Positions 129 to 35,197 of a DNA stretch of 64,000 nt are shown in pieces. A model generated the notes under the pieces. It searched no databases, was not told the origin of the DNA, and saw only the letters and a program-made list of their open reading frames with translations. Numbering within the stretch: position 1 is the stretch's first letter; each line of letters opens with the position of its first letter. A program made the position numbers and the translations under genes. This stretch comes from an uncultured delta proteobacterium (lineage in GTDB: Bacteria; Myxococcota_A; Polyangia; Polyangiales; Polyangiaceae), in assembly GCA_963841435.1 (NCBI GenBank), contig CAWJCS010000005.1, forward strand, positions 1,664,001 to 1,728,000. Reading direction: 5' to 3'.

Positions 129-3100
129 CGGGGGGTGCCGGGGGCCGGCGTGGCGCTCGCGACGACCTGCCGCACCCGGGCGCGTCGCCCGGCCGAAAGC
201 GTGACTTCCTGGGTCATCGGCGTGCTGCCGCGGATCTCGACGCGATGCTGCCCGGCGACGGCGGGGACGCGCCGCACCGGCCCACTGCCGACGAACTGCC
301 CGTCAACGTAGATGGGGTCCGTGCCGGGCGTCTCGATCTCGATGACGCCGTTGCCCGCCTTCAGCGTCATGTCCGGGGGCGGCTCGAGATCGTCGGTCAT
401 GAGCGCCGGTGCGTTTGCCGAGCTCGCCACCGGGATGATTGACGCAGCCGAGACGGCGGGCGTGGCGGCGGTTGGCTCGTCTCGAGGCTCCTCGGGGGAG
501 ATCAGCGGAAGAACGACGAAATTCGTGACGCCGAACGCGACGCCGAACGCGAGGAGGCCCTTGCCGACCGCGGCAGCCCAGCTGCCGGATGCTTCCGGCG
601 CTTCGGGGCGTCCGCGCCGTGGCTGTGGCGGCTCCGTCTGGGCGTCGCGCGGCGAGGTCCTCACGATGCGCGGTGGCGCGGGGCTGGTCGGCTCCGGGTC
701 CAGCTCGTCGAGCCCCGCGGGCTCGTGGGTTTCGGGTTTGCGCGGAGCGGCTGCCGGAACGGCCTCGGCGGCTTCGTTGCGAGGGGCGGAGCGCGCCGTC
801 TTGGGTGGCGCTGAGCTCACGTCGTTGTCGCCGAGCAGTCCGAGCACGTCCTCGCCCGCGACGACGGCGCCGAGCTCCGGGGTGCTCCGTGCGGGTGGGC
901 GGGCGGCGTCGAGCGGCTCCTCCGGCTCGCCGCTCGCCGCCGCGGCCTCGCTCGACTTCGCCGTCGTGGGCGCCTCGTCCGGCTTGGTCGTCGTGGTCGG
1001 GCCCGCGGAGAGCGGCAAGGTTCTCGCGGCGACCGGGGCGGCGCCGACCCCCTCGAGAGTCCGGGCAGCTTCGCCGCCGAAGTGGAAAAGCGGCGCCGAC
1101 GCCTCCGCGGTGGCCGGGGTCTTGCTCGCGTCGAGCGGCAGCGTCTTCGAAAGGCCGCCGATTCGCAGGCTCGGTCCCGGGGCCACCATCGTGCTCGCGA
1201 AGGCCGCGGCCGTCTCGGGCGCCTCGCGCGCAGGGGTCGTCGGGGGCTCGGGCTCGGTGGCGGCCAGATGATTTGCCGCGACCGGAGCGTTGGTGGGGCC
1301 TGCTTCCGGCGCCCCCGGATCGGAGGGGCGCAATGGATCGGTTCCGGGGGGCGTGGGCTCGCTCGTCGCGTCGGCGAACCAGCCCGCGTCGTGCTCGTCG
1401 AGAGGGCTCACGCCGGGCTTGGTGCCGGCGCCGAGCCGCTCGGGCTCGGGTTCCGGCGGGGGCGCGCTCGGGACGGGGGCGATGCTCGGGGGGTCGAGCT
1501 CGGCCGAGACCACGCCACCACGTCGCGCGATGTCGGAGAGCACGACCTCGAGCAATCGCGACTCGGCGGAGCCACCGAGCACGAGCTCACGCACCGGCTC
1601 CCCGGCGAGGAGCCGCTTCAACAGGGCCGCCGCCGGCGCCGGGGTCGAGGGCAGGTAAGCCTCCACGAGCGGTCGGTCCAGCTCCAGCTTACGCAGGCGC
1701 ACGAGCGCATGCTGCGAGACGGCTCCGAGCCCCGCCCGGGCCCGCCCGAGCGGCGCGGCCATCAGCTCCGCGAGGGTGCCCTTGAGCTCGACGCGGGTGG
1801 AAGAATCGTCAGGCTCCACCACGAAGCGGCCTGCGCTGGCGCCGAGCAGGCTGCCGAGCACGGTTTCTCCCCGGACGAAGCCGCCGTTGACGCTGCTTCG
1901 GCTCAGCGAAACGAGCCGCCCTCGCCGGACCTGGGCTTCGAACAGGAACGCGGCGTCGCGCACCGACACGCGCACGTTGCCGCCGCCGAGGCACACGAGC
2001 TCGAGCACGAGGCGCGGCGTGATCCCGTCCAGGCGTCCGCGGACCTCCCCGCCGGCGAGGATCCGCGCCTCGACGCGCGCCCGTGGCCGCAGGACCTCCC
2101 GCACGCGCTCGACGACGGCCGACGCGGCCGCCTCCTTGCGCAAATAGCCGTCGGCGCTCGCGCCGAGCTCGCGCACGCGCTGCAGCAGATCTTCCTTCCA
2201 GGACAGCAAAATCACGGGCGTGTCCCGCACGGCGACGTCGCGCTTGATCTCGTGGCAGAGCGAGAAGCCGTCGAGCTTCGGCATGAGCACGTCGCTCACG
2301 ACAACGTCAGGCTGTGCGCCGAACGTGAGCTCGAGCGCCCGTTGCCCGTCGTGGGCTTCGAGCACCTCGACCCCCACGGCCTTGAGCAGCCCGCTCATGA
2401 ACCAGACGACGGCCGGATCATCGTCCGCGACGAGGATCTTGCGCCCGTTGAGCGAAACCCCTTCGGGCTCACGGGAAAGCCGTAGTCCGCGCTCGCCCGC
2501 GCGCCGCTCCGAGCGCGTCCAGGGAGCGAGCGGCACGGCGCCCTCGGGTCCGGTCTGCCGGAAGCGCAGAGCGCCGCTAGAATGCAACGTGACGAGCTCG
2601 CGCACGCGCGCGACCGCGCCCCACACGGCCGCGAGCACGTCGTGCCCCTCCCCGAGCGGCACGCTCGCCTGCGGCGAGCCGGCGTCGAGCGCATCGACCA
2701 GACCGCGTTTGAACTCGTGCGCAATGCGCTCCGAGAGCGCCGCCACCGTGACGTCACCGAGCGGGTCGCGCGAGGCGCGCGGCCGCGCCGAGCGCTGGCG
2801 CAGCTCCTCGACCGTGCGCCTGAGGACGTCCGGGCTCGCCGGCTTCGCGAGCACGCGATCGACCCCGAGCTCGACGAAGGCGCGCGTCGCCTCGGGGTTA
2901 TCGAAGCTTCCGACGACGACGACGGGCAAAGGCTCGATCAGGGCGTCGCCGAGCAGCTGGTCGAGCACGTCGCGCGCGCGCGGGTGGTCGCCGTCGATGA
3001 CCGCGGCGTCCGGGCCCACCATGCGCGCGAGCTCGATGGCCCGATCGGCGTCGTCGGTCCGCTCGCACTCGAGCACGGCCTCGCCCGCGCCCTCCGTGAG

Positions 3101-3529
3101 CGCGTCGGCCAGCGCCTTCGAGCCGAGCACGAGCACGCTGATGGGGAACGCGACCGGAGCCGCCCGCTCACGTGACTCGGGGTCGCGCGTCGAGGCGGGC
3201 GCGCCGAGCACGAGGGACGGCAAAAGGTCGAGGGCGCGGGCCACCTCGGCGAAGGGCTTTCTCCCTCGCTGAGGGGCGCTCCGTACGCTCCGCTCGGCCT
3301 CGGCGAGCGCCTCGGCAACGCTCGCGAAGCCGAGCACCCGGGCCGCCGAGCCCACGGCGTGCACGCGCCGCAGCAGGCCGTTCACGCGGTCCGCGTCGTC
3401 GGGGACCTGCTCGGCGACCTCGAGGGCGCCGCGCAGCGCCTCGAGCCTCCGGGGCAGGCTGCCGACGAACTCCGCGCGGGCGCCGATCAATCGGGCGTCG
3501 TCCTCGCGGCTTTCCGGGGCGGGGGCCAT
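125..3529 (-). CDS. Membrane-anchored multidomain response regulator: Hpt-REC-REC-DUF4388-like-Pro/Ala linker-TM-PEGA
   Basis: Hpt-like RRVHAVGSAARVLGF; atypical REC (PDAAVIDGD); canonical REC (ILVADDDP...PDVVVSDVLMPKLDG...GYLRK); DUF4388-like VRGRLDGITPRLVLELV; TM LLAFGVAFGVTNFVVLPLI; PEGA-like IYVDGQFVGSGPVRRVPAVAGQHRVEI. Confidence 0.8.
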   Translation of the reverse strand: MAPAPESREDDARLIGARAEFVGSLPRRLEALRGALEVAEQVPDDADRVNGLLRRVHAVGSAARVLGFASVAEALAEAERSVRSAPQRGRKPFAEVARALDLLPSLVLGAPASTRDPESRERAAPVAFPISVLVLGSKALADALTEGAGEAVLECERTDDADRAIELARMVGPDAAVIDGDHPRARDVLDQLLGDALIEPLPVVVVGSFDNPEATRAFVELGVDRVLAKPASPDVLRRTVEELRQRSARPRASRDPLGDVTVAALSERIAHEFKRGLVDALDAGSPQASVPLGEGHDVLAAVWGAVARVRELVTLHSSGALRFRQTGPEGAVPLAPWTRSERRAGERGLRLSREPEGVSLNGRKILVADDDPAVVWFMSGLLKAVGVEVLEAHDGQRALELTFGAQPDVVVSDVLMPKLDGFSLCHEIKRDVAVRDTPVILLSWKEDLLQRVRELGASADGYLRKEAAASAVVERVREVLRPRARVEARILAGGEVRGRLDGITPRLVLELVCLGGGNVRVSVRDAAFLFEAQVRRGRLVSLSRSSVNGGFVRGETVLGSLLGASAGRFVVEPDDSSTRVELKGTLAELMAAPLGRARAGLGAVSQHALVRLRKLELDRPLVEAYLPSTPAPAAALLKRLLAGEPVRELVLGGSAESRLLEVVLSDIARRGGVVSAELDPPSIAPVPSAPPPEPEPERLGAGTKPGVSPLDEHDAGWFADATSEPTPPGTDPLRPSDPGAPEAGPTNAPVAANHLAATEPEPPTTPAREAPETAAAFASTMVAPGPSLRIGGLSKTLPLDASKTPATAEASAPLFHFGGEAARTLEGVGAAPVAARTLPLSAGPTTTTKPDEAPTTAKSSEAAAASGEPEEPLDAARPPARSTPELGAVVAGEDVLGLLGDNDVSSAPPKTARSAPRNEAAEAVPAAAPRKPETHEPAGLDELDPEPTSPAPPRIVRTSPRDAQTEPPQPRRGRPEAPEASGSWAAAVGKGLLAFGVAFGVTNFVVLPLISPEEPRDEPTAATPAVSAASIIPVASSANAPALMTDDLEPPPDMTLKAGNGVIEIETPGTDPIYVDGQFVGSGPVRRVPAVAGQHRVEIRGSTPMTQEVTLSAGRRARVRQVVASATPAPGTPR

Positions 3530-26971: not shown

Positions 26972-27904
26972 TCACGAGCCCGCGGGCGTCCACGTGGCGT
27001 TGGCGATCATCGCGCAAGCCGCCGCGGGGTCGACGATCGTCGTGCCCTGGTAGACGCACTCGCGGTAGGCGGCCGGCGTCGCGTACGCGCAGCAACCGAT
27101 GAGATCGAGGCCCGCGGGGCACGGTGATTCCGACCAGGTGCCGCCGCTGAGCCCGCACGCCATCTGCGACGCCGCGACGCTGGCCGGGCCGTCAGTGATC
27201 TCGAGGCAGCTTGCCTGCGTCGTACGCTGGTCGCAGGTGCCGTGCACGAGCGCGCCGCCGGCGCTTCCTCCCTGGCCGGCGCCACCCGAGCCCGCCACGC
27301 CGCCCGAGCCCGCCACGCCGCCTGAGCCGGCTACGCCGCCCGAGCCGGCCGCGCCGCCCGAGCCCGCTGGCGATCCGCCGGCGGCACCGCCGCTGCCGCC
27401 CGAGCCGGCGGCGGCGCCGCCCATGCCGCCACTCACCCCTGACCCGGCGCCGCCTGCAGCGCCGCCGAAGCCGCTGCCGCCGCTTCCGGCGAAGGGACCG
27501 CTCCCCGCAGAGCTGCCGCCCGTTCCGGCGAAGCTACCAGCGCTGCCCCCAACGCCGACGCCCGCTGCTCCCGCTGTACCAGCGGCAGCGGCACCGGCCG
27601 TACCCCCGGTGGGCGGCGTCGCGCTCGAGCCGCCGTTTCCGCTGCCGCCTGTGCCCGGAGCTGCGCCCGCGCTCGTACCGCCGGAGTCGTTCGCCCCCGA
27701 CGTGCCGCCAGTGCTGGCCGAAATGCTGCCACCTGTTCCCCCCGAGCCTGGCTGTCCGCTGCCTCCGGTCCCGCCGGCACCGATGGCCGGGCCGTTCGGG
27801 TCGTCCTTCTTTCCGCCCGGGAGCTCGGGGAACGGATTGAGAAAGCACCCAGCCGGCCACAAGGCCAGAAGAATGGGTAGGAGGCGCCGATAGTAAGGCG
27901 GCAT
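26972..27904 (-). CDS. Gly-rich-linker lipoprotein with small Cys-rich C-terminal domain
   Basis: LLALWPAGC lipobox, long G/S/A/T linker, tail with about 8 Cys. Confidence 0.75.
   Translation of the reverse strand: MPPYYRRLLPILLALWPAGCFLNPFPELPGGKKDDPNGPAIGAGGTGGSGQPGSGGTGGSISASTGGTSGANDSGGTSAGAAPGTGGSGNGGSSATPPTGGTAGAAAAGTAGAAGVGVGGSAGSFAGTGGSSAGSGPFAGSGGSGFGGAAGGAGSGVSGGMGGAAAGSGGSGGAAGGSPAGSGGAAGSGGVAGSGGVAGSGGVAGSGGAGQGGSAGGALVHGTCDQRTTQASCLEITDGPASVAASQMACGLSGGTWSESPCPAGLDLIGCCAYATPAAYRECVYQGTTIVDPAAACAMIANATWTPAGS
27284..27367 (-). repeat. Coding 18-bp tandem repeat (GSGGVA/GSGGAA units) in the linker
   Basis: CCCGAGCCCGCCACGCCG-like unit repeated about 4 times. Confidence 0.75.
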
Positions 27905-28068
27905 GGCAGGGCCTGTGCCAATGGAAGCACAACTTGGGCCAGTGTCGGTGGAAGATCGACCGCGGCCCATCGACCTTTCCGTGGCCCCTCTGGCGTGCAC
28001 CCGCGCCTTTGCGATTTGGCGCAATTTGGCACAAATTGCGACCGCGGTGTCCCATCCGGCCCACCACG

Positions 28069-28098
28069 GCTCAGCTCAGCTCAGCTCAGTTTAGCTCA
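28069..28098. repeat. Pentanucleotide microsatellite (GCTCA)n
   Basis: GCTCA x4, GTTTA, GCTCA. Confidence 0.9.
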
Positions 28099-28449
28099 AG
28101 CTCCGGCCTCCCCGCCGGCACCTGCCTCGGGACCGTCCAGGTTCCCCGAGCCGCCGGTTCCCTCGGGCGGGACCGCCGGGCTGCCGGCGGTCCCGGAGGT
28201 CGCGCCGCTGTCGACGCCGGCGTCGGGGGCAGAAGAGCCGCCCGTTGCCCCAGACCCGGTCATCCCAGTGCCGCCGGCCCCCGAGTCGGAGAGCCCGGGG
28301 GTCCGCCCCCCGTTCGTCCCGGGCAGGTCCGCGCCGTCGCGCAGCAGGCACGCCCCGGTGAGCAGCAGCCCGGCGAGGGCGGTGAGCAGGAAACGCGGCA
28401 CGCCGCTCCCTGGTGCAATTCTCCCGCCAATCGGCTCACCCTCCGACAT
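28096..28449 (-). CDS. Short Gly-rich lipoprotein (signal and linker only)
   Basis: LLTALAGLLLTGAC lipobox followed only by a G/S/T/A/P low-complexity tail. Confidence 0.6.
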   Translation of the reverse strand: MSEGEPIGGRIAPGSGVPRFLLTALAGLLLTGACLLRDGADLPGTNGGRTPGLSDSGAGGTGMTGSGATGGSSAPDAGVDSGATSGTAGSPAVPPEGTGGSGNLDGPEAGAGGEAGA

Positions 28450-28458
28450 CGGAATCGT

Positions 28459-29295
28459 TCAGCCCCGACCTCGGAGGGCTCGTCGCGCTCGGGCGAGCAG
28501 CGCCATGGCCGGGGCCGTGTCGGGTGGCAATCGGGCGAGGCCCGCGCGGACTCGATCCAGCTCGGCCGTGATCTCGGAGAGCCCCGCTGCCACCGTGTCA
28601 GCGTTCGTCGCCAGGATGTCCTCCCACATTCGTTCCGGGCCGCCGGCAGCGTGCGTCGTGCGCTCGAAGGCAGGGCCCACGGCGCTCTCCGCGCCCGATT
28701 CGAGAGCGACGCCCGCGAGCGCGCTCGCGACGAGCTGAGTCACGTGGCTCGTGAGGGCCACCGCGCGATCGTGCTCGTCCGCGCTCAGACGCACGGGCAC
28801 GGCGCCGAGCCTGGGCACGAGGCTCTCGACGAGCTCGAACGCGTCCGGGTCGACGTTCTCGGGACAGAGGATCCAGCGGCGCCCCTGGAACAGGTCCGCG
28901 CGCGCCAGGTCGATGCCGCCCTCGGGGGCGCCCGCCATGGGGTGACCGGGGACGAAGCGCGCGCGCCGCGGCGAGGCGCCCGCGGCGCGGGCGATCGCGC
29001 GCTTCGTGGAGCCGCAGTCGGTGACCACGCGTGCCGTGGCGAGCAGCTCGGGGACGAGTCGGATGATCGCGCTCACGGGCGTCGCGACCACGACGAGATC
29101 TGCCCGCGCCGCTGCCCCGGCCACCTCGCCATACCGCGCGGCGTCGATGTGCCGCGCGGCCGCCCGCTGTGCCGCCGGGCGGTCGAGGACGGCCGGGAGA
29201 TCCACGGCGGTCACCTCGGCGCCCGGGTCAACCTGGGCGAGGGCGAGCGCGAACGAGCCCCCGAGTAGACCGAAGCCGACGACGACGACGTTCAT
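28459..29295 (-). CDS. tyrA: Prephenate/arogenate dehydrogenase
   Basis: VVGFGLLGGS, VTDCGSTK, FVPGHPMAG, HDRAVALTSH, MWEDILATN. ATG 29295 overlaps the upstream stop. Confidence 0.9.
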   Translation of the reverse strand: MNVVVVGFGLLGGSFALALAQVDPGAEVTAVDLPAVLDRPAAQRAAARHIDAARYGEVAGAAARADLVVVATPVSAIIRLVPELLATARVVTDCGSTKRAIARAAGASPRRARFVPGHPMAGAPEGGIDLARADLFQGRRWILCPENVDPDAFELVESLVPRLGAVPVRLSADEHDRAVALTSHVTQLVASALAGVALESGAESAVGPAFERTTHAAGGPERMWEDILATNADTVAAGLSEITAELDRVRAGLARLPPDTAPAMALLARARRALRGRG

Positions 29296-30191
29296 CGACG
29301 CATGGCCGCGGCGACCGCGCGCACGCGCTCCGCGACGTCGACGGCGTCGCCCCAGCTGAGCGTCGCGGGAACTCGTGCCACCTCGCCGTCGCGCCCCACC
29401 CACACGCGCAGCACGATTCCGTCGGCACCCGCGGCGACCGCCGCGGCGGCAACCGAAGCAACGTAGCGCGAGCGCTCGGCGATGCTCGGCACGTCGACGA
29501 CGATCGGCAGATGCGTGCGCTGTTTGGCCCGGGCGATGGCAGCGACCTCGAGCGTGCGCGCGCCGCTCGGGTATTCACCCCCGCACTCGAACAGCACGAC
29601 CTGCCCTTCCGCGCGCCCGAGCTCGCGCTCGGCCTCCGCGATCCATGCGTTGGCGCCCGCGCTCGGCGCGCGCGCCACGAAGCACACGGGCCAGCGCTGG
29701 CCGCCGGGCTGCGGATGCACCGAGAGGCACGCGAGCGCCCCGACCGCGTCGGGTGCCAGATGCGACCGCGTGATGGCGGCATCGAACGGCCGCCCCGCGA
29801 GCACGGCGTACGGCAGCTCCTGCGAGCGGGGCGCTTCGGCGTCGCTCGGCCGCGACGCAGGCTCGGCGTGGCGCACCGCCGGACCGATCGGCTCGATGGC
29901 GATCCACGGTCGCTCGCCGCCGATCGTCCCCCAGGGTCCTTCGATGACCGTCAACTGCTCGCGGAAGCGTCGCGACGCCAGCCGAAAAGGCTCGCTCACT
30001 CGCACGACCTGAGCGACGCCCTCCAGCTCGCTGACGACGACGACGTCGTTGCCCGTGACGTCGCCGACGACACCGAGGATCGTCCGCTTGGCGCCGCTCG
30101 AGCGGTGCACGTCGAACCCCGCGGAGACCAAGAACGCGATCACGCTCTCGACCGCGCGGTCGGAGGCCCCTTCAACCATGACGACGATCAT
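29292..30191 (-). CDS. DAHP synthase type I-beta homologue with intact N-terminal regulatory domain and degenerate catalytic barrel (probable pseudoenzyme)
   Basis: MIVVMVEGAS...HRSSGAKRTILGVVGD...VVRVSEPFRLASR matches the AroF I-beta N-terminus; RTHLPIVVD and AAVAAGADG are retained; the catalytic motifs are missing. Confidence 0.8.
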   Translation of the reverse strand: MIVVMVEGASDRAVESVIAFLVSAGFDVHRSSGAKRTILGVVGDVTGNDVVVVSELEGVAQVVRVSEPFRLASRRFREQLTVIEGPWGTIGGERPWIAIEPIGPAVRHAEPASRPSDAEAPRSQELPYAVLAGRPFDAAITRSHLAPDAVGALACLSVHPQPGGQRWPVCFVARAPSAGANAWIAEAERELGRAEGQVVLFECGGEYPSGARTLEVAAIARAKQRTHLPIVVDVPSIAERSRYVASVAAAAVAAGADGIVLRVWVGRDGEVARVPATLSWGDAVDVAERVRAVAAAMRR

Positions 30192-30283
30192 CGGAGGCCG
30201 GCCAGACTAGCAGAACCCGGCGCCGTTGACGTTGCCCGGAGCCGCGGGGGCAGCCCCACCGCGGCTTGCAGGGAGCGAGCCTG

Positions 30284-31516
30284 TCACTCGGTGGTGAAGC
30301 GGTGGACCATCGTGTGCTTGTACGTCTGGCCGGGCTTGAGGATCACCTGATCCTTCCAGGCGGGGACGTTGATGGCATTCACGAAAGCCTGGGTTTCCAG
30401 GCAGAACGCGTCGTATTGGTGGTACGTCGCGCCCTTGCCCGTGAGCTTGCCGTCGAGGAAAATGCCCGCGTAAAACTGAAGCCCGGGTTGATCCGCGTCG
30501 AGCGTCAACACCCGCCCGGACTTCGGATCCTTCACGATGGCGGCGGGGCGGAGGGTGTGGGGCTCGCCGTTGACGATCCAGTTGTGGTCGAAGCCAACGG
30601 GCGTCCCGCCTGCGGCTTCGAGATTCTTGCCGATGGGCGTGGGCTGCAGGAAGTCGAAGGGTGTGCCGGCGACGGGCTTGACGGTGCCGTCGGGCACGGG
30701 GTCGGTGCCGGGCTTCGTCGGCTTACCGGGCGTGTACTTGTCCGCGAAGATCTGCAGCACGTGATCGCGAATGGTCCCCGAGTTGTACCCGCCGAGGTTC
30801 CAGTACGAATGGTGAGCCATGTTCACGATCGTGGTCTTGTCGGTCGTGGCGGCCATGTCGACACGGAATGTGTTGTCGTGGGTCAGCGTGTACGTGACCG
30901 TCGCGGTGACCGTGCCGGGGTACCCTTCCTCGCCGTCCTTGGACACGTAGGTGAGCTTGAGCGCCGGGTCCTCGGCGGTGCCCGCGGGCTCCGCCGTCCA
31001 GATCACCTTGTCCCAGCCCTTTTTCCCGCCGTGGAGCGTGTGCGGGCCGTTGTTGGCGAAGAGCTTGTACGTCTTGCCTTCGAGCTTGAACTGGGCGTTC
31101 TTGATGCGGTTGGCGACGCGACCGACGGTCGTGCCCATGTAGGGGCTGCTCTTCACGTACTCGTTGACGGTGTCGAAGCCCGCGACGATGTCGGCGAGCT
31201 TGCCGTTGCGATCGGGAACGAGAAAATTCGTGACGATGGCGCCGTAGTTGCTCACCGTCATCGCGAGCCCCTTCGGGTTCGTGAGCGTGTAGCGAACGAC
31301 GTCCTGGCCGTTGACCTTGCCCCACGGGGCCTTGGTGATGGGCTCCGGCTTGGGAGCGGGCGCGGGCTCCGGCACGGCCGGGGGAGCCGTCACGGCGACG
31401 GGAGCGGGAGCTTCCGGGGGCGGAGGCGCAACGGGCTCGGGCTGCGCGCCGCCGCAGCCGATCATGAGTCCAATCGCAGTGCCCAGGATGGTTTTCGACA
31501 GGCCGAGTCGCGTCAT
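30284..31516 (-). CDS. galM: Aldose 1-epimerase (mutarotase), lipoprotein
   Basis: LMIGC lipobox and Pro-rich linker; GRVANRI, LHGG, GEEGYPG, HHSYWNL, FDHNW, FCLETQ. ATG at 31516. Confidence 0.9.
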   Translation of the reverse strand: MTRLGLSKTILGTAIGLMIGCGGAQPEPVAPPPPEAPAPVAVTAPPAVPEPAPAPKPEPITKAPWGKVNGQDVVRYTLTNPKGLAMTVSNYGAIVTNFLVPDRNGKLADIVAGFDTVNEYVKSSPYMGTTVGRVANRIKNAQFKLEGKTYKLFANNGPHTLHGGKKGWDKVIWTAEPAGTAEDPALKLTYVSKDGEEGYPGTVTATVTYTLTHDNTFRVDMAATTDKTTIVNMAHHSYWNLGGYNSGTIRDHVLQIFADKYTPGKPTKPGTDPVPDGTVKPVAGTPFDFLQPTPIGKNLEAAGGTPVGFDHNWIVNGEPHTLRPAAIVKDPKSGRVLTLDADQPGLQFYAGIFLDGKLTGKGATYHQYDAFCLETQAFVNAINVPAWKDQVILKPGQTYKHTMVHRFTTE

Positions 31517-31672
31517 TGCCGCCTCTTTCGTGCGTGGGGAGAGAGTGGCGCGGGGCTCGAGACTTCGAGCCTGCACCGGGATTGGCTCCGTACCCTGATC
31601 AGGCAGAAATGACAATGCCATTGCGGAGCCGAATCCACGCCAGTGCAGGTCGCCGCAGACCGTCGCGATAGG

Positions 31673-32098
31673 TCACGATTCTCGCCGAGCGGGACCGAGC
31701 CCGGCGGCCATTCGCGCGAGCGCCGTATCCTCGTCTTCACTGAGCCCGCTCACGCCAACGGCGCCGACGACCTCACCCGACGGAGCGAGGACCGGCACGC
31801 CGCCGCCCCAGCTGACGTAGCGAAGCACCCCGAAGTTGGTGAGCGGGAAGCCCTCGCGGCGCGACGCCTCGCCAAGCGCCTTGGACTCGCCCTGCTCTCG
31901 TGCTGCTGTGTACGCTTTGTTGATCGCTACGTCGATGCACGAGAGACGACACCCATCGGTGCGGAGCAGTGCGATGAGCTCACCATGCGTGTCGACGACG
32001 GCGACGGCGGCCCCCTGCCCGTTTCGCTCGAGCTCGCGCTGGACCGCCCCGATCATGGTCATGGCCTCGGCGTGCGAAAGCGTGTGTAGGGTTCGCAT
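31673..32098 (-). CDS. GlcG/HbpS family heme-binding protein
   Basis: AVAVVDTHGELIALLRTDG, AINKAYTA, GGGVPV...VVGAVGVSG..ED. Confidence 0.9.
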   Translation of the reverse strand: MRTLHTLSHAEAMTMIGAVQRELERNGQGAAVAVVDTHGELIALLRTDGCRLSCIDVAINKAYTAAREQGESKALGEASRREGFPLTNFGVLRYVSWGGGVPVLAPSGEVVGAVGVSGLSEDEDTALARMAAGLGPARRES

Positions 32099-33780: not shown

Positions 33781-33955
33781 TCTTCCAGATCGGCTAGCCT
33801 CGAGGGGCGGTTTAGCCCGTTCGGGGCCGACCGCCGAGGGCACCCGGCGTCATGTCCAGGGTGAATCCCGAGGGAACCCACCCACCCCCCCGGTGGGTTT
33901 GATGATTCGTTTGTCGAGTGCCGGGACTCTTAACCAGTCCAAGGAACTAAAAAAC

Positions 33956-35197
33956 ATGAAGCGTGCTCTCTTTGCATCGGTTGTGGTGGGGTTCGGGGCC
34001 TTCGCCGGCTGTGGCGGTCAAGAGCCCTCCACGGTCGTCAGTACTGGGGGAACCGGGGCTGGGGCAACGGGTGGGAGCAGCGGCGCGAGCGCATCGGGGG
34101 GTAGCGCCGGCACGGTCGCTGGCACCGGTGGCTCGCTGGGTGGCACCGGCGCCACGTCGGGAACGGCAGGAGGAGCCACCGGTGGCACCGCTGGCTCGGT
34201 GACGGGCGGCACGGCCGGTCTCGGCGGCACCGGCAACGGAGCTGGGCTTGGCGGCGGCTCGGGCCTCGGTGGCACGGGCGCCGTGTCCGGCGCGGGCATG
34301 GGCGGCATCGCCGGCACCATGGCCGGCAGCGCGGGTGATACAGGTGGCATCGGCGGCGCGGGTGCTGGCGGCGCGGGTGCCGGTGGCACCTCCGGTTCGG
34401 CGGGAGCAAACGGCGGCGCCGGCACCGGCGGCATGTCCGGCGACGGTGGCACGGGCGGCAGCGCGTGTCCCTCGGTCGCCGAGCTCTTCCCCGCCATGGG
34501 CAACATGGGCTCGCTCGATGGTCGCCTCGTCACGACGCCCTGCGCGACGACGAACAGCGACGACTGCGACGGCGGCGGTTGGATCTACCAGGGCCAGACC
34601 TCGCCGTGCATGAACGGCTCCCTCAACGCCCAGCAAGACTTCACCGTCGCCGGTACGCCTGGCGCAATGTACACCGTGATGATCCACTTCTACGGCGTCG
34701 TCGAGCCGAAGAACTACGGCAACATGGTGACGCGCGAGGCCGGCAACACGCGCCCCACGAACTCGTTGACGGGCGCGAGCCCGGCGCCTTGGGCCCAGGC
34801 CAACGGTGGCGTGACGTATCCGGCGTCGGACTACAACACGTACGAGATCCACGTCCTCGACAACAACAACCAAGAAATTCACGAGTACTTCCTGAACTCG
34901 GACACGCAGGAAGGTCACTGGACGTATCTGTTGAACTACGAGCGTGAGATTACCGTCGTCGGTGGCGGCAAGGTCCGCATGCGCACGTACGACCGTAACT
35001 GCCGCATGATCAAGAACTGCGGCGTCAGGACCGGCGGCATCAGCATCGATGCTTGCCGGGCGGCGACCAAGCAGACGATCAGCACGTCGGCTGCGATGCC
35101 CCAACCCATGGGTCTGACTCAGCCGGGCCTGGGTCAGCCGGACGATCAGTCCGGACAGTGGCTCTTCTTGGATGTCATGAGCGTCACCTGCATGTGA
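33956..35197 (+). CDS. Gly-rich-linker lipoprotein with beta-rich Cys-containing C-terminal domain
   Basis: AAGGA RBS, MKRALFASVVVGFGAFAGC lipobox, about 140-aa Gly linker, about 240-aa globular domain. Confidence 0.85.
   Translation: MKRALFASVVVGFGAFAGCGGQEPSTVVSTGGTGAGATGGSSGASASGGSAGTVAGTGGSLGGTGATSGTAGGATGGTAGSVTGGTAGLGGTGNGAGLGGGSGLGGTGAVSGAGMGGIAGTMAGSAGDTGGIGGAGAGGAGAGGTSGSAGANGGAGTGGMSGDGGTGGSACPSVAELFPAMGNMGSLDGRLVTTPCATTNSDDCDGGGWIYQGQTSPCMNGSLNAQQDFTVAGTPGAMYTVMIHFYGVVEPKNYGNMVTREAGNTRPTNSLTGASPAPWAQANGGVTYPASDYNTYEIHVLDNNNQEIHEYFLNSDTQEGHWTYLLNYEREITVVGGGKVRMRTYDRNCRMIKNCGVRTGGISIDACRAATKQTISTSAAMPQPMGLTQPGLGQPDDQSGQWLFLDVMSVTCM

Follow-up and report, generated by a model that had tools for sequence, protein, structure and literature searches.

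HisZ is a catalytically dead paralogue of HisRS that serves as the histidine-sensing regulatory subunit of the short-form ATP-phosphoribosyltransferase HisG, and both the complex and its allostery have been established experimentally. Here we describe a gene whose logic appears, by analogy, most like that of HisZ/HisG and of the allosteric assemblies of 3-deoxy-7-phosphoheptulonate synthase (DAH7PS) with chorismate mutase (CM). It is the open reading frame (ORF) 29292-30191(-) in a 64,000-nucleotide stretch of DNA (the window) from an uncultured member of the Polyangiaceae, whose genome (G000) spans 7.78 Mb and is 95% complete. We use pse as a short name for this DAH7PS-like pseudoenzyme gene and its protein; the next gene is tyrA. 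The best match of pse in both sequence and structure is the type I-beta DAH7PS of the Thermotoga maritima type (PDB 1RZM, 1VR6 and 3PG9), with which it shares the two-domain layout and the fold. Unlike that enzyme, pse has neither the metal nor the substrate ligands, and its barrel has lost some 40-50 residues.

As in the case of HisZ, the bacterial pseudoenzyme pse would descend from an enzyme able to recognise the end product of the pathway, and we propose that it likewise acts in trans on a biosynthetic enzyme without a regulatory domain; the fold and the pathway are different, however, and for pse both the complex and the allostery are putative. The DAH7PS-CM assemblies, as treated in the relevant part of PMC8408635, comprise the non-covalent complex of Mycobacterium tuberculosis and the fusions of Prevotella nigrescens and Geobacillus, with the DAH7PS barrel as the allosteric partner of a branch-point enzyme. 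There the DAH7PS is active and the partner is CM, whereas pse has a dead barrel and is coupled to tyrA. Also comparable to pse are shikimate-pathway domains that have degenerated and are joined to enzymes of the Phe/Tyr branch, which Song, Bonner and Jensen 2005 (PMC1173090) treat in the sections devoted to them: in Shewanella, AroQ-PheA carries a fused aroA(I-beta) 'pseudogene', and in P. syringae TyrA bears a truncated EPSP-synthase domain, with the suggestion that such remnant domains could turn regulatory. As presented in those sections, the remnants are fused, confined to single lineages and given without evidence of selection, whereas pse is a separate protein of a widely conserved family under measured constraint. 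The same source describes, where it deals with TyrA architecture, TyrA-ACT and TyrA-REG fusions (Bacillus, Actinobacteria, Archaea), in which an ACT-type amino-acid-binding module for feedback control forms the C-terminal domain of TyrA; with pse, by contrast, the ACT-like domain would be contributed by a second polypeptide that has the barrel as its scaffold. Our literature search, which covered listings and passages, returned no report of a free-standing conserved family of dead DAH7PS proteins or of a DAH7PS-TyrA complex. Regulatory pseudoenzymes are a known kind, and what is probably new is a free-standing, conserved dead-DAH7PS family coupled to tyrA.

Judged from its sequence, pse is a catalytically dead homologue of DAH7PS. 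We aligned it with canonical DAH7PS enzymes carrying the same N-terminal ferredoxin/ACT-like (FXD) domain, including two canonical proteins from Polyangiaceae genomes that carry pse too. In these alignments AGPC has become IEPI, with loss of the metal-binding Cys; the KPRTS region is deleted or swapped for a variable linker; QIGAR is not retained and the Arg of GAR is unaligned; KRG reads ARA and CERG reads ECGG; DPSH has turned into DVPS and EVH into RVW, so that the metal His and Glu are gone, as is the Asp of SDG. The four metal-ligand positions (Cys/His/Glu/Asp) read I/E-P, S, R and R/V in pse, and they are non-canonical in 29/29 orthologue loci. Over nine catalytic columns the canonical enzymes give CKRRKRHED, and all nine are changed or deleted in pse and in the 29 strong loci of genome_contigs, except that three of the latter show a lone Arg in the KPR-Arg column, within a gapped linker. 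The roles of the metal-ligand residues are those seen in the T. maritima and P. furiosus structures, and the Lys/Arg residues of KPRTS, QIGAR, KRG and CERG bind PEP/E4P in the active enzyme. When pse was searched against the PDB with phmmer, residues 195-264 aligned with residues 229-300 of T. maritima DAH7PS, and DPSH again corresponded to DVPS and EVH to RVW. Pfam PF00793 matched only residues 198-264, at 23.2 bits against a cut-off of 25.5, and the NCBIfam models for DAH7PS remained far from their thresholds (PRK08673, the best, 92.8 vs 335; TIGR01361, 54.8 vs 267.75).

The protein is also short, with 299 aa compared to 338-351 aa in the canonical forms. AlphaFold2, run on a 57-sequence alignment, gave a model with a predicted local distance difference test (pLDDT) score of 87.1 and a predicted template modelling (pTM) score of 0.75, in which only residues 109-123 are disordered; this linker, gapped and unconserved among pse homologues, lies where strand and helix elements are missing. 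Foldseek returned T. maritima DAH7PS as the best structural match to the model (E 2e-16). In VIA, the two superposed with Z 23.1 over 279 residues (root-mean-square deviation, rmsd, 5.0), and the barrel alone matched T. maritima 3pg8_B with Z 22.2 and an rmsd of 3.0 Å over 215 residues. According to the model, pse thus keeps a shortened (beta/alpha)8 barrel. When a canonical Polyangiaceae DAH7PS was compared with window positions 27000-32000 by tblastn, the matches fell in one frame only, and we therefore reject a hidden compensating frameshift that would restore KPRT and the other motifs.

The first 67 residues of pse tell a different story from the barrel remnant, as they cover all 67 positions of the Pfam profile PF18152 (DAHP_snth_FXD) at 61.5 bits (cut-off 27). 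Residues 1-85 align one to one with residues 1-85 of T. maritima DAH7PS in the phmmer search, and His29 and Ser31, which we take to function in tyrosine recognition in that enzyme, are kept. Both belong to the set of residues that are invariant across 26 pse orthologues, as are the FXD loops GFDVHRSSG and LGVVGD. This is the sole PF18152 domain in G000. For DAH7PS, tyrosine is described as driving the movement of the regulatory domain in the part of PMC4822156 concerned with this step. From its sequence, the FXD of pse would be a ligand-binding domain of the tyrosine-recognising kind, with tyrosine as the probable ligand. The initial annotation of this locus had read the sequence in much the same way: the uninterrupted 299-aa ORF, the Thermotoga-type regulatory domain, the altered active-site motifs and the shortened barrel were all found again, and the hidden frameshift it had wanted excluded did not appear. 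As pse lacks every catalytic feature that we tested for the DAH7PS enzyme family, it is not to be filed as a DAH7PS enzyme, and the name '3-deoxy-7-phosphoheptulonate synthase' that one annotation source gives to pse-type genes is almost certainly wrong. Such an enzyme name would mislead pathway reconstruction.

Loss of catalysis has not been followed by decay. A protein search with pse gave 805 matches among 8000 scored candidates; the best 120 of the 805 were all full-length (281-309 aa, 68-100% identity) and, where named, appeared as Polyangiaceae 'hypothetical protein' or, in one source, as 'DAHP synthase'. Hundreds of intact homologues were found in metagenomes by this search, and 14 clusters of a representative protein library matched at E <1e-30. 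Of the 24 other same-genus genomes, 21 contain a full-length orthologue and the three that gave none are 67-88% complete; full-length or contig-cut orthologues occur in 43 of the 151 sampled genomes of the GTDB family Polyangiaceae, spread over many genera. The species-representative collection yielded 29 strong loci, all from metagenome-assembled genomes (MAGs) and none from a cultured strain, under the labels Polyangiaceae, Polyangiales, Polyangia, Myxococcota or similar. Among 26 genomes the mean column identity was 76% for pse and 63% for the adjacent TyrA. Pairwise ratios of nonsynonymous to synonymous substitution (dN/dS, or omega; Nei-Gojobori, NG86) pointed the same way: dN was lower for pse than for tyrA in 325/325 pairs, and the median omega was 0.19 compared to 0.39, with values of 0.03-0.09 for the closest pairs. 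By region, omega was 0.14 in the FXD, 0.22 in residues 81-108, 0.57 in 109-127, 0.22 in 128-180 and 0.16 in 181-299. The protein is thus under strong purifying selection over its whole length except the linker, and the barrel remnant (0.16-0.22) is about as constrained as the FXD. In a quick maximum-likelihood tree of 57 rows, with support by the Shimodaira-Hasegawa-like approximate likelihood ratio test (SH-aLRT) only, the pse family was monophyletic (SH-aLRT 100) on a stem branch of 2.4 changes per column and was not sister to the canonical Polyangiaceae enzymes. Two expectations of the initial annotation were open to comparison, and both agreed with the data: orthologues carry the same catalytic losses (29/29 strong loci) next to tyrA (26/29), and dN/dS shows a constraint stronger than that on tyrA rather than neutral decay.

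The minus strand of 28459-30191 consists of two genes, pse with 299 codons and then tyrA with 278. Read on that strand, the junction is ...ATG CGT CGA TGA, with the ATG of tyrA at 29295-29293; pse and tyrA thus have the four bases ATGA at 29295-29292 in common, an overlap that the initial annotation had noticed. This TyrA has the Pfam domains PDH_N (88.4 bits) and PDH_C (38.3 bits), both above their cut-offs, and no ACT or CM domain, the former absence having been noted before as well. Its GxGxxG motif stands at the N-terminus, counted from the overlapping ATG, and tyrA is the only PDH_N (PF02153) gene in G000. Gene order and overlap are both widely kept. Directly downstream of pse we found tyrA in 19/19 same-genus loci with downstream DNA, in 8/9 loci from other genera and in 26/29 loci of genome_contigs, the remainder there being one locus cut by a contig end and two without tyrA (L070, L083); these three sets overlap in genomes and are not additive. 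In 26/27 orthologous loci with downstream DNA, pse and tyrA overlap by the same 4 nt, ATGA or GTGA, with tyrA in frame. Where a genome holds both pse and an active FXD-DAH7PS, tyrA sits by pse, and 0/5 of the canonical loci (L034-L038) had tyrA within ~3.5 kb. We conclude that pse is co-translated with a domain-less TyrA and strictly coupled to it.

Since pse is a pseudoenzyme under selection that is co-translated with a TyrA lacking a regulatory domain, and since its FXD loops are invariant, we favour the interpretation that it is a trans-acting, tyrosine-sensing accessory subunit of TyrA, to which we assign a probability of roughly 45%. Two further observations presented below speak for it: TyrA is fused to CM in the sampled relatives that lack pse, and other truncated FXD-DAH7PS-like genes have come to abut tyrA or trpE separately. 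Its ligand, its physical partner and the direction of regulation are what we infer here. Under this interpretation, pse would be a non-catalytic type I-beta DAH7PS paralogue that has kept the FXD and uses the stripped-down barrel as a scaffold. The conserved ATGA overlap would lead to its synthesis in fixed proportion to the only TyrA of the cell, the FXD would sense tyrosine or a close aromatic metabolite, and pse, working in trans, would serve the tyrosine branch as an accessory or regulatory subunit that passes the signal on to TyrA. The initial annotation had proposed a retained pseudoenzyme serving as sensor or regulatory subunit; a protein that is dead by sequence, under purifying selection and coupled to a TyrA without regulatory domain is the part that stood, and its sensing role is putative.

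Several observations weigh against this interpretation. TyrA core enzymes are, as stated where PMC1173090 discusses their inhibition, commonly inhibited competitively at the active site, for which an extra domain is unneeded. Loci of Acidobacteriota, Anaerolineales and Solirubrobacterales have tyrA behind an active FXD-DAH7PS, and DAHP-synthase-then-tyrA operons in E. coli and Bacteroides are mentioned in the operon passages of that paper. As this arrangement is old and widespread, the pse-tyrA order was probably inherited from an active ancestor, so that linkage by itself is weak evidence and could be inherited rather than functional; the coupling seen by the initial annotation was borne out and is less telling than it had seemed. 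The informative point is that gene order and overlap were retained after catalysis had been lost. No tyrA lies within ~3 kb downstream of the pse orthologue in L033, L070 and L083, a same-genus genome that is 96% complete (G064) gave no pse match, and the orthologue of G130 contains an in-frame TAG. The association between pse and TyrA architecture described below may reflect one ancestral change or a single clade rather than independent events, because the genomes are related. Finally, our search for longer proteins found no pse-TyrA fusion, although the method is itself weak evidence; beyond P0271 (540 aa, 36% coverage) and one fusion of canonical DAH7PS-PDT-ACT type, it returned nothing. 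Open frames of 571-895 aa that looked like pse-TyrA fusions were rejected as high-GC artefacts, because the pse and tyrA matches fall in different frames. Prediction of a TyrA-pse complex, run without controls, scored 0.00 and 0.00 compared to a mark of 0.32, a result that speaks neither for binding nor against it.

The remaining enzymes of the pathway bear on who the partner might be. As judged from sequence, two type I-alpha genes, both intact, provide G000 with active DAH7PS, which answers where the active enzyme that the initial annotation had looked for is encoded; whole-genome profile searches of G000 found no type II DAH7PS and no further FXD domain. A third I-alpha copy at C3:1301280-1302159 (L003/L004) has PF00793 matches in two adjacent frames, with a frameshift near 1301615 that reflects either a pseudogene or a mistake in the assembly. 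The PF00793 search of this 95%-complete genome returned DAH7PS-type genes only and no KDO8P-synthase-like match, which may reflect an outer membrane poor in lipopolysaccharide (LPS) or an assembly gap; LPS-poor outer membranes have been reported for some Polyangiaceae. One stand-alone AroQ chorismate mutase (CM_2) of 98 aa is encoded on contig C1, with pse-tyrA on contig C5. Fusions of PDH and CM occur in 30 of the 151 family genomes and in none of the 43 that have pse, and 8/8 further genomes without pse, a non-random set picked from weak matches, also have a CM-PDH fusion. In one family member that is 97% complete in 3 contigs (G085), no PDH_N (TyrA) match was found at E <= 1e-5. Another (G124, L148) has a 417-aa PF00793 DAH7PS at 1022-2272(+) directly before a CM-PDH fusion at 2253-3383(+), a layout like the tyr operon of E. 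coli in a Polyangiaceae genome.

These data leave room for a different partner, an explanation that we consider unlikely but that survives best among the alternatives: pse could regulate or activate the stand-alone AroQ CM or the type I-alpha DAH7PS, or act as a scaffold between CM and TyrA in genomes that do not have the two fused. The leading candidate would be the 98-aa AroQ CM, on the pattern of the DAH7PS-CM complex in M. tuberculosis, and the type I-alpha DAH7PS would come second. DAH7PS barrels as allosteric partners of CM are documented in the part of PMC8408635 cited above. In relatives that lack pse, a covalent fusion joins CM to TyrA, and orthologues of the stand-alone CM (E <= 1.5e-19) were found in 42 of the 151 family genomes; the 43 genomes with pse account for 39 of these. 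However, this co-occurrence may be clade inheritance, four pse genomes lack a CM orthologue by the query used (G095, G162, G153, G076) and a full pse is absent from three of the genomes with CM. The CM gene is moreover unlinked, whereas tyrA is overlapped. As for DAH7PS, type I-alpha enzymes have feedback sites of their own, and the genomes vary in the active DAH7PS types that they hold.

Somewhat less probable again is a change of function, with pse as a neofunctionalised enzyme or ligand-binding protein whose remodelled barrel pocket serves a new role in tyrosine metabolism. The long stem branch followed by conservation would fit such a shift, as would a barrel remnant about as constrained (omega 0.16-0.22) as the FXD. 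The family-specific invariant residues W96, E100, F136, D137, R142, F171, R174, W183, E202, D233, R262 and W264 map to the C-terminal ends of predicted strands or close to them; these conserved charged and aromatic residues could, however, just as well occupy a closed pocket, stabilise it or belong to an interface. About 50 residues have been lost, with a disordered linker in place of part of the barrel, and neither Pfam nor NCBIfam points to another enzyme family.

It is quite improbable that pse is a stand-alone sensor of aromatic amino acids that acts outside the pathway enzymes, for example on gene expression or on another protein, and that owes its position before tyrA to inheritance. The ancestral DAH7PS-tyrA gene order and the three loci that retain pse without an adjoining tyrA would be consistent with this, but Pfam shows no DNA- or RNA-binding domain in pse and the ATGA overlap is kept in 26/27 loci, down to ~55-60% identity. 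The loss of catalytic residues and of part of the barrel would suit a pseudogene in decay, or a leader ORF that does no more than bring ribosomes to tyrA, but this explanation can practically be dismissed: purifying selection, stronger than on tyrA, covers everything except the linker, the best 120 of 805 homologues are full-length at 68-100% identity, and pse itself has no frameshift.

Degenerate FXD-DAH7PS genes are not limited to the pse family. Two MAG loci from Bryobacterales, which belong to another phylum, contain ORFs of 236-237 aa with an FXD and a partial barrel (L108:3001-3714 and L113:3001-3711) that end 1-2 nt before a monofunctional tyrA (L108:3716-4543; L113:3712-4563). Their catalytic columns are gone, PF00793 matches with 68 bits over part of the profile, and they form a clade separate from pse in the tree. 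In two of the 151 family genomes, both of one other Polyangiaceae genus, a truncated FXD-DAH7PS-like ORF is coupled to trpE instead: the 285-aa ORF L040:3577-4431(-) has an ATGA overlap with trpE (L040:1937-3577(-)), which is followed by trpG (L040:1353-1937(-)), and L051:1498-3305 shows the same layout. Here too the catalytic motifs are gone (PF00793 reaches 59 bits over a portion of the profile) and the clade is a separate one. In Rhodothermales MAG loci (L091, L096, L097, L099, L114, L118) there are FXD-DAH7PS paralogues of full length in which several of the catalytic residues have been exchanged (columns such as TKRRERQHS and NRRHKGHEE); these arise twice inside the canonical Rhodothermales clade, and no tyrA adjoins them at those loci. 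We tentatively raise the idea, rather doubtful at present, that FXD-DAH7PS repeatedly lost catalysis and was re-used as a detachable, end-product-sensing allosteric subunit for enzymes at aromatic branch points, namely TyrA, in the pse clade of uncultured Polyangiaceae and independently in Bryobacterales, and the anthranilate synthase TrpE, in the other Polyangiaceae genus.

The features of the locus are collected in Table 1. A promoter and terminator scan of 27900-30500 detected no sigma-70-like promoter and no terminator, and an Rfam scan of 28000-30700 gave one chance-level miRNA match only (E 0.45). A look-up of sequencing runs over 28459-30300 turned up none, nor any holder of RNA. On the same strand, 92 nt upstream of pse, lies an aldose 1-epimerase gene (30284-31621(-); PF01263, 280 bits) with an N-terminal extension of ~100 aa. 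Pfam gave no match for the 117-aa ORF 28096-28449(-). Two long ORFs of the window, 26972-28024(-) and 33893-35197(+), have N-terminal halves of low complexity rich in Gly/Ser/Ala/Thr and C-terminal parts with Cys, and may encode secreted proteins or lipoproteins.

Table 1. Features of the pse-tyrA locus, in window coordinates.
Feature	Position	Strand	Basis
pse coding sequence, 299 aa	29295..30191	-	open frame; stop TGA at 29292-29294
FXD (ferredoxin/ACT-like) domain, residues 1-67	29991..30191	-	PF18152 61.5 bits; region dN/dS 0.14
Variable linker, residues 109-123, predicted disordered, replaces KPRTS-bearing part of barrel	29823..29867	-	pLDDT <50
Degenerate shortened TIM-barrel remnant, residues ~83-299	29295..29945	-	PF00793 below cut-off; catalytic residues gone
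ATGA stop/start overlap of pse and tyrA, translational coupling signature	29292..29295	-	minus-strand read-out
tyrA, monofunctional prephenate/arogenate dehydrogenase, 278 aa	28462..29295	-	PDH_N + PDH_C; stop 28459-28461
92-nt spacer between aldose-1-epimerase gene and pse, no recognised signal	30192..30283	-	promoter/terminator and Rfam scans

The pse/TyrA pairs are small, soluble-looking and open to direct testing in E. coli. DAH7PS is a textbook case of modular allostery, and pse would show the reverse, namely an enzyme turned into a regulatory subunit. If repeated re-use of this kind is true, it would represent an undescribed class of pseudoenzymes that, in the manner of HisZ, regulate the shikimate pathway in trans. 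For the organisms themselves, a tyrosine-sensing role of pse would, if true, account for the control of a domain-less TyrA among a large group of uncultured soil myxobacteria.

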